This document shows, one piece after another, positions 62,341-63,132 of a stretch of DNA of 64,000 bases. Numbering within the stretch: the stretch's first letter is position 1; every line of letters starts with the position of its first letter. The position numbers and the translations under genes were made by a program. The notes beneath the pieces were generated by a model. It did no database searches. It saw only the letters and a list, made by a program, of their open reading frames with translations, and had not been told where the DNA came from. The stretch lies in assembly GCF_003334405.1 (NCBI RefSeq), contig NZ_QOWM01000002.1; one strand, given 5' to 3'. This stretch comes from Escherichia coli. Its GTDB lineage: Bacteria; Pseudomonadota; Gammaproteobacteria; Enterobacterales; Enterobacteriaceae.

Positions 62341-62393
62341 ATCCGTTGCCAATCTGGCAACGGATGTTATCATATTGCCAATTTGTCAACGGA
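62341..62393. promoter_or_regulatory. higBA promoter/operator region with a perfect palindrome
   Basis: catccgttgcca-atc-tggcaacggatg (12-bp perfect arms) at 62341..62367, followed by a related imperfect repeat ttgccaatttgtcaacgg, 12 bp upstream of the higB ATG. Confidence 0.5.
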
Positions 62394-62404
62394 CGTGATG
62401 AAGA

Positions 62405-62719
62405 ATGCACCTGATAACTCAAAAAGCATTGAAAGATGCTGCGGAAAAATACCCGCAACATAAAACGGAGTTGGTGGCTCTGGGGAACACGATTGCTAAG
62501 GGATATTTCAAAAAACCTGAGTCATTAAAAGCAGTATTCCCATCTCTGGATAACTTCAAATATCTGGATAAGCATTATGTTTTCAATGTTGGGGGCAATG
62601 AATTACGTGTTGTAGCAATGGTCTTTTTTGAATCGCAAAAGTGCTACATACGTGAAGTTATGACGCATAAAGAATACGATTTCTTTACCGCTGTTCATCG
62701 TACTAAGGGGAAAAAATGA
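62405..62719 (+). CDS. higB: Type II toxin HigB (RelE-like mRNA interferase)
   Basis: 104-aa ORF MHLITQKALKDAAEKYPQHKTELVALGNTIAKGYFKKPESLK...; its stop overlaps the higA start (ATGA). Confidence 0.85.
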   Translation: MHLITQKALKDAAEKYPQHKTELVALGNTIAKGYFKKPESLKAVFPSLDNFKYLDKHYVFNVGGNELRVVAMVFFESQKCYIREVMTHKEYDFFTAVHRTKGKK

Positions 62720-63132
62720 TTGCGATTGCCGACATCTTGCAAGCAGGAGAAAAGCTAACTGCTGTGGCACCTTTTCTGGCGGGTATTCAGAACGAGGAAC
62801 AATACACCCAGGCGCTGGAACTGGTAGATCATCTGCTGCTCAACGATCCTGAAAACCCCTTGCTGGATCTGGTGTGTGCCAAAATAACCGCGTGGGAAGA
62901 ATCAGCGCCCGAATTTGCGGAATTTAATGCCATGGCTCAAGCCATGCCTGGCGGTATAGCCGTGATTCGTACCCTTATGGATCAATATGGTTTAACCCTT
63001 TCCGATCTGCCGGAAATTGGCAGTAAATCTATGGTGTCACGCGTTTTGAGCGGGAAGAGGAAATTAACGCTGGAACACGCTAAAAAATTGGCAACGCGAT
63101 TCGGCATTTCTCCCGCCTTGTTTATTGATTAA
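62716..63132 (+). CDS. higA: Type II antitoxin HigA (HTH-XRE)
   Basis: 138-aa ORF MIAIADILQAGEKLTAVAPFLAGIQNEEQYTQALELVDHLL... with a C-terminal HTH-like region. Confidence 0.85.
   Translation: MIAIADILQAGEKLTAVAPFLAGIQNEEQYTQALELVDHLLLNDPENPLLDLVCAKITAWEESAPEFAEFNAMAQAMPGGIAVIRTLMDQYGLTLSDLPEIGSKSMVSRVLSGKRKLTLEHAKKLATRFGISPALFID

Follow-up and report, generated by a model that had tools for sequence, protein, structure and literature searches.

The higBA (ygjNM) toxin-antitoxin operon of Escherichia coli K-12 and two operator sites overlapping its promoter

A perfect palindrome directly upstream of a small toxin-antitoxin gene pair could be the operator through which the antitoxin controls its own synthesis, the site of another regulator, a hairpin or a dispersed extragenic repeat, and the question of which of these applies is raised by one end of the 64,000-nucleotide stretch of E. 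coli DNA analyzed here (the window). We conclude with high confidence that the locus is the chromosomal type II toxin-antitoxin operon higBA (ygjNM) of E. coli K-12, self-repressed via two operators in its promoter. Positions 62100-63200 are 100% identical to K-12-derived strains and show the gene order rlmG-higB(ygjN)-higA(ygjM)-fadH, the matching MG1655 genes being annotated as b3083 and b3082. HigB contains a RelE-like toxin domain, HigB_toxin (Pfam PF09907, E = 4.4e-22, residues 20-92), which is the sole Pfam family matched, and aligns over its full length with PDB 5IFG_A (E = 6e-68). Full-length matches of HigA are found in PDB entries 5IFG_B, 6IRP, 6JQ4, 6KML and 6KMQ (E = 1e-86). Its XRE-type helix-turn-helix (HTH_3, PF01381, E = 2.5e-7) spans residues 84-135 of 138, giving a domain order with the toxin-binding and dimerization domain at the N-terminus and the HTH at the C-terminus. 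An NCBIfam scan of HigB and HigA returned a family match for neither protein. Both genes are located on the same strand with the toxin first, and the ATG of higA is shared with the TGA of higB in an ATGA overlap at 62716-62719. This order and overlap had been called correctly in the first-pass annotation, as had the contrast with prlF-yhaV, which is found at 19172-19971 on the minus strand of the same window with its antitoxin gene first. Coordinates of all features are collected in Table 1. By reading of the sequence, no Shine-Dalgarno match as good as the AAGGGG ahead of higA is present upstream of the higB ATG; as judged from these sequence features, the gene overlap and the difference in ribosome binding sites probably favor an excess of antitoxin.

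Table 1. Features of the higBA locus and its flanks, in window coordinates.
Feature	Position	Strand	Description
Inverted REP unit pair (BIME-like)	62137-62223		Inverted repeats; just past the rlmG stop; left module boundary
9-mer GCATCCGGC, left copy	62214-62222	+	Junction of the empty-site allele falls here (alignment with strain 31B19CPO010B)
O1	62340-62366		Perfect 27-bp palindrome CATCCGTTGCCA-atc-TGGCAACGGATG; 12-bp arms 100% complementary, 3-bp spacer
Predicted -35 hexamer TTGCCA	62346-62351	+	Consensus scan; equals left half-site of O1
Predicted -10 hexamer TATCAT	62368-62373	+	Consensus scan; between O1 and O2
O2	62374-62393		Imperfect O1 copy, aTTGCCA-ATT-TGTCAAC-gga; repeat TTGCCAATTTGTCAACGGA at 62375-62393
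higB (ygjN)	62405-62719	+	ORF, 104 aa; ribosome-dependent mRNA interferase toxin; b3083
Shine-Dalgarno-like AAGGGG	62705-62710	+	Read from sequence; 5 nt 5' of higA ATG, within higB 3' end; putative role
higA (ygjM)	62716-63132	+	ORF, 138 aa; antitoxin and repressor; b3082
REP-like hairpin GCCGGATGC-gtt-GCATCCGGC	63141-63161		9-bp stem; between convergent higA and fadH
9-mer GCATCCGGC, second copy	63153-63161		Right arm of the 63141-63161 hairpin; indel boundary

The higBA promoter region contains a perfect palindrome, O1, and an imperfect copy of it, O2. The perfect symmetry, arm length and spacer of O1 had been recognized before, while its start, previously placed at 62341, is shifted here by one base to 62340; the palindrome cannot be extended further since both flanking bases are T. 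Its core, GTTGCCA-ATC-TGGCAAC, occupies 62345-62361 and covers the predicted -35 hexamer and the promoter spacer. Only three loci in the whole 64-kb window, O1 included, have perfect inverted repeats whose arms reach 12 bp or more and whose spacers do not exceed 10, and the same criteria yield 6 raw hits compared to a mean of 0.09 in first-order Markov shuffles. The O1 palindrome is far beyond chance. The other two such repeats are located at 6620-6651 (AGGGCGTTATCTGACAGGTCAGATAACGCCCT) and 45856-45883 (AAAAACGAGGAGCTTCCTCCTCGTTTTT), the latter looking like a bidirectional terminator. O2, a second related repeat already noticed just upstream of higB, is 84% identical to O1 at a start-to-start spacing of 29 bp and has 1 mismatch to the motif GTTNNCANNNTGNNAAC in a motif scan. 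It starts one base past the -10 hexamer and covers the expected start of transcription along with the first part of the 5' UTR. A promoter scan across 62100-63250 identified a single plus-strand sigma-70-like site, TTGCCA-16-TATCAT, with 10 of 12 consensus matches, a 16-bp spacer and a TG ahead of the -10. O1 and O2 together bracket the -10 and cover the -35, i.e. the inverted repeats overlap the predicted promoter of their own operon. We also observed an exact 10-nt copy of an O1 half-site, CGTTGCCAAT, on the minus strand inside higA (63087-63096, KLATR codons). No convincing partner half-site was seen near this copy, which may be a chance match or an auxiliary site.

Published experiments on this exact locus support regulation of the operon by its antitoxin. 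Christensen-Dalsgaard et al. (Christensen-Dalsgaard, Jorgensen and Gerdes, 2010) renamed ygjNM higBA, showed the growth-arresting toxicity of HigB and its neutralization by HigA, and mapped a single promoter via primer extension (PMC2814082). In the same study, a PhigBA-lacZ fusion was active only without the locus and was repressed by HigA in trans, and induction of higBA required Lon (PMC2814082). Figure 1B of that paper marks a putative -35, -10 and SD and shows inverted repeats as putative protein-binding sites (PMC2814082). According to a review citing Jadhav 2020, the affinities of HigA and of HigBA for the operator are similar and in the nanomolar range (PMC8138530). Another article reads earlier structural papers otherwise, the complex binding DNA more strongly than HigA (PMC7160566). 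These two secondary sources differ as to what the toxin contributes to operator binding. The earlier proposal of autoregulation by the antitoxin is thus borne out by repression of PhigBA-lacZ (PMC2814082) and by nanomolar operator binding (PMC8138530), and because of this published work the binding and promoter-reporter tests suggested in the first-pass annotation have already been done. A full-text literature search with the operator sequences on both strands returned no paper. Toxicity and neutralization, the single promoter, HigA repression, Lon dependence and nanomolar operator binding are consequently taken from the literature, while the present analysis contributes the identity of the locus, the layout and single-copy status of the operators, and the finding that homologues conserve the two-operator design.

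The two-operator design is conserved in homologous higB-higA loci. Using HigA as a tblastn query, we identified homologues on 2,503 plasmid records (Klebsiella accounting for 2,057) and compared eight higB-higA loci in which the region upstream of higB is intact. Each of the eight has a pair of GTTnnCA-N3-TGnnAAC sites, one on either side of a -10. Six of these loci (three Klebsiella IncF, one Klebsiella IncFIB/HI1B, one E. coli IncF and one Serratia), with HigA proteins 45-50% identical to K-12 HigA, each contain exactly two perfect GTTNNCANNNTGNNAAC matches directly upstream of higB, 38 bp apart, with a -10-like hexamer TATAAT, TACAAT or ATATTA between them. The chance expectation for exact matches to this motif is ca. 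0.002 per 2.2-kb locus (2200/4^10). In a Providencia locus, likewise with a 38-bp spacing, one site is exact and the other has 1 mismatch. Paired sites ca. 29-30 bp apart, like those of K-12, are found in Erwinia pEJ30 (HigA 78.5% identical) and in a Salmonella locus, at each of which one site passes the motif scan and the other was identified by visual inspection. Over all homologous loci, the -10 candidates between the operators are TATAAT, TACAAT, TATTAT or ATATTA. Where the spacing is 38 bp, the -35 coincides with the right half-site of O1 (TTGTCA, TTGAAA or TTGTAA), whereas K-12 uses the left one; the gap between the 38- and 29-bp spacings is 9 bp, corresponding to one half-site plus spacer.

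The operator sequence shifts together with the recognition helix of HigA. Half-sites with a central GC or GA dinucleotide go with the recognition helices SKSMVSR and SRSYVSR, TC with KKSLVSR, TT with SKSNVSN, and CA or TA with SKSLVSQ. Across eight systems, and with exceptions, the central dinucleotide thus appears to track HigA residues 106 and 109, a sequence correlation that is suggestive only. In K-12 HigA the two residues are M106 and R109, compared to L/N and Q/N in the plasmid types. One exception is the O1 right half-site of the IncF plasmids, which is GTTGACA although residue 106 is Leu. Two further loci, L007 and L011, are organized differently, with a HigA-like gene in third position, preceded by the genes of an unrelated RelE/ParE toxin and of a distinct HTH regulator, and a motif scan of them detected no GTTnnCA-type operator. 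At these loci (Klebsiella and E. coli IncF plasmids; ca. 240-270, 898-1311) we additionally noted an upstream 30-bp perfect palindrome, AGCTAACTTAGCTCTTGAGCTAAGTTAGCT, and a HigA-like protein whose recognition helix is the same as that of IncF HigA.

These comparisons bear on whether O1 and O2 could instead serve another transcription factor, with HigA repressing indirectly or via other sequences. Such an arrangement would be compatible with the matching PDB entries, which list no DNA-bound molecule name, but unrelated plasmids from several genera have these sites together with higBA homologues, differences in site sequence go along with differences in the HigA recognition helix, and no such sites are present at L007 and L011, which have another toxin-regulator pair ahead of the HigA-like gene. 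HigA alone, moreover, represses the promoter (PMC2814082) and binds the operator (PMC8138530). We consider a different factor very unlikely and retain HigA as the protein acting at both sites.

Only the K-12-type allele of O1 is perfectly symmetric; the operator in general is not. Scored over 32 nt (62338-62369) in 2847 operator-bearing E. coli genomes, the O1 allele is identical to that of the window in 1515, differs by one mismatch in 508 and by two mismatches in 824. The changes seen in four variant strains examined are G62357T, by which the O1 core becomes equal to O2 (TGTCAA), and C62343T, each of them breaking the symmetry. Three natural O1 alleles are distinguished, CG (K-12), CT (O157) and TT (UTI 2/0 type). 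The perfect palindrome may be a recent derived state of the K-12-type lineage, which could have arisen by a T-to-C change at 62343 and a T-to-G change at 62357 in succession, each regaining a palindrome pair. If so, the strength of higBA repression would vary among E. coli lineages.

The same alleles are informative about a reading of O1 as an RNA or DNA hairpin, that is a terminator or stabilizing stem in an rlmG read-through or antisense transcript, and not a protein-binding site. A terminator scan does flag a minus-strand stem at 62366-62340 with 12 pairs, 7 of them G-C, but the tail behind it, AATTTATCTG, is a poor T-run and on the plus strand no terminator was called. One or two stem-breaking O1 substitutions are carried by 1332 genomes, and O1 is positioned upstream of the predicted start and would hence fall outside the higBA mRNA. 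O2 and several homologous operators are imperfect while their half-sites are conserved, which fits binding by a dimer. The poor tail and the natural stem-breaking alleles speak against a terminator hairpin as the main role of O1, and a hairpin function of any kind is, in our view, highly improbable compared to a role as HigA operator.

REP sequences bracket the module, as had been pointed out before, with the elements at 62137-62223 and 63141-63161 both qualifying as REP. The sequence GCCKGATGCGRCG is matched with 0 mismatches at 62137 (+) and 62210 (-). In an Rfam scan of 61900-63400, naRNA4 (RF02564), which we take to be a REP-derived family, matches the REP pair (62130-62273) at 40 and 34 bits, below the gathering score of 59.5. 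These sub-threshold matches after rlmG are consistent with REP-like sequence and not with an sRNA gene. Apart from them the scan of this interval gave only a chance CRISPR-DR match, and nothing on the operators. Genuine REP units lying 117 bp before and 9 bp after the module, on account of which the whole 1.1-kb query matches a median of 25 places per genome, might suggest that O1 is itself a REP-type or other dispersed extragenic repeat without a specific link to higBA, but this has a negligible probability and is rejected because O1 is present in a single copy per genome: 75-nt and 32-nt O1-centered queries match a median of one place, operator queries match no complete E. coli genomes other than the 2847-2848 of 5426 that have the higB 5' region, O1 does not match the REP consensus GCCKGATGCGRCG, and homologous plasmid loci carry the same type of site upstream of higB. 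The palindrome, for which membership in a REP-type repeat family had been named as the finding that would speak against an operator, is thus confined to this locus.

The higBA module is polymorphic in E. coli, with repeated decay from the toxin side. Among 5426 complete E. coli genomes, higA is present in 4377 and the promoter with the higB 5' region in 2848. The difference between these two counts corresponds to ca. 1529 genomes (ca. 28%) with an orphan higA, and ca. 1049 (ca. 19%) contain neither higA nor the higB 5' region. An example is E. coli W, in which a 325-bp deletion (62317-62641) has removed the promoter, both operators and higB codons 1-79, while the annotated higA is intact. The deletion is defined in this strain, the figure of ca. 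28% referring to all genomes with higA and without the higB 5' region. No replacement promoter for the orphan higA was seen in the E. coli W allele, and the promoter scan of 62100-63250 contains no plus-strand promoter for higA inside higB. An orphan higA at the higBA locus was noted earlier in CFT073 and NRG857c (PMC7232551). In the empty-site strain 31B19CPO010B, the rlmG-REP is joined to the fadH side within the 9-mer GCATCCGGC, which is found at both ends of the 939-bp module, so that the module is bounded by REP sequence. This could represent an insertion into REP or a deletion between REP arms.

Further alleles show other forms of toxin loss. In STEC299 (L016, NZ_CP022279.1; ca. 650-760), the 29-bp unit of operator and -10 is present three times instead of two, and higB has an internal deletion of ca. 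194 bp with higA intact. The higB gene of strain EC19 is frameshifted. On a Leclercia plasmid (L019, 447-692), the 5' end of higB is truncated beside an IS1 transposase, and in Enterobacter hormaechei (L020, a 606-kb record, 704-1120) an intact orphan higA follows the last higB codons between tisB and ivbL-ilvB. The Enterobacter and Leclercia cases are two further independent losses of higB. Given E. coli W, STEC299, EC19, Leclercia and Enterobacter, loss from the toxin side with the antitoxin kept is recurrent. Orphan higA may be kept since HigA neutralizes or regulates incoming plasmid HigB homologues, i.e. as an anti-addiction function.

The following mechanism is the one best supported by the anatomy of the locus together with the published experiments. 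One sigma-70 promoter (predicted hexamers TTGCCA-16-TATCAT) gives rise to a bicistronic mRNA with the toxin gene first. A HigA dimer, joined by its N-terminal domains, would set its two C-terminal XRE-type HTHs on operator half-sites of the sequence TTG(C/A)CA, the bases presumably contacted, within two operators of the form GTTnnCA-N3-TGnnAAC located 29 bp apart. Occupancy of O1 would cover the -35 and the spacer, and occupancy of O2 the start region past the -10. Since O1 and O2 overlie promoter and start, their occupancy would block RNA polymerase, by which the operon represses itself. Translation would likely be biased in the same transcript, with the ATGA overlap and the strong AAGGGG ribosome binding site of higA, compared to the weak one of higB, leading to antitoxin excess. 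Under stress, degradation of HigA by Lon derepresses the promoter, and free HigB cleaves translated mRNAs on the ribosome.

The system is already characterized, and the earlier reading was a correct call on what is ordinary textbook material; it opens no new biology. The allele-specific symmetry of O1, the common operator grammar and the decay series are minor additions made here. Two copies of GTTnnCA-N3-TGnnAAC flanking a -10 are easily recognized and could be used to annotate the promoters of the very common K-12-type higBA modules. The population data represent a clean natural case of a chromosomal toxin-antitoxin module decaying from the toxin side with the antitoxin kept, spanning perfect and imperfect O1, a triplicated operator unit, repeated higB loss and a REP-bounded indel. 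HigA residues 106 and 109 may set the central dinucleotide of the GTTnnCA half-site, in which case chromosomal and plasmid higBA in one cell would be transcriptionally insulated. The three proposals, namely a derived O1 symmetry, a dinucleotide set by residues 106 and 109, and retention of orphan higA for anti-addiction, are tentative ideas that we regard as possible and somewhat unlikely.

Comparison with known systems identifies the locus as K-12-type HigBA, with a HigB_toxin (PF09907) toxin and a C-terminal antitoxin HTH. Relative to E. coli K-12 HigB-HigA (YgjN-YgjM, b3083-b3082; PDB 5IFG, 6JQ4, 6KML), the locus, DNA, proteins and neighbors are the same and no difference is found. Plasmid HigB-family pairs of Klebsiella, E. 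coli IncF, Serratia, Erwinia and Providencia, with HigA proteins 45-79% identical to that of K-12, share its gene order and paired GTTnnCA-N3-TGnnAAC sites. Unlike K-12, they have TC, TT, CA or TA as central half-site dinucleotide instead of GC, and the IncF, Serratia and Providencia loci use a 38-bp operator spacing instead of 29 and take their -35 from the right half-site of O1. No experimental work on these plasmid-borne pairs was found in the literature.

Proteus vulgaris Rts1 HigBA, P. aeruginosa HigBA and P. putida GraTA resemble K-12 higBA in having the toxin gene first and a ribosome-dependent toxin of RelE fold, and in this Rts1-type group an XRE-HTH antitoxin likewise represses via two operators with inverted repeats that overlie the promoter. 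The toxin of Rts1 is a member of the PF05015/ParE-like family. The HTH of Rts1-type HigA is N-terminal, also according to the literature, whereas that of K-12 HigA is C-terminal (residues 84-135), and the Rts1 and K-12 operator sequences are unrelated. Membership of the K-12 system in the Rts1 HigBA family is ruled out by the C-terminal HTH and by a toxin matching PF09907 only; the two share name and logic and represent different families. Vibrio cholerae HigB2-HigA2 is similar to K-12 in that a dimer with C-terminal XRE HTHs binds an inverted repeat in the promoter and the N-terminal part neutralizes the toxin. It differs in having a single operator, TGTACGC-N5-GCGTACA, and an intrinsically disordered HigA2 N-terminal region that makes fuzzy DNA contacts, in contrast to the folded N-terminal domain of K-12 HigA. 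Salmonella Typhimurium SehA-SehB, like K-12, has the toxin first and an antitoxin with N-terminal dimerization and a C-terminal HTH (PMC7160566). In the same source, SehB is reported to be 46% identical to HigA and to bind promoter DNA carrying two palindromes, located on the -35 and -10 boxes (PMC7160566). SehA-SehB differs from K-12 higBA in its chromosomal locus and in being linked to virulence.
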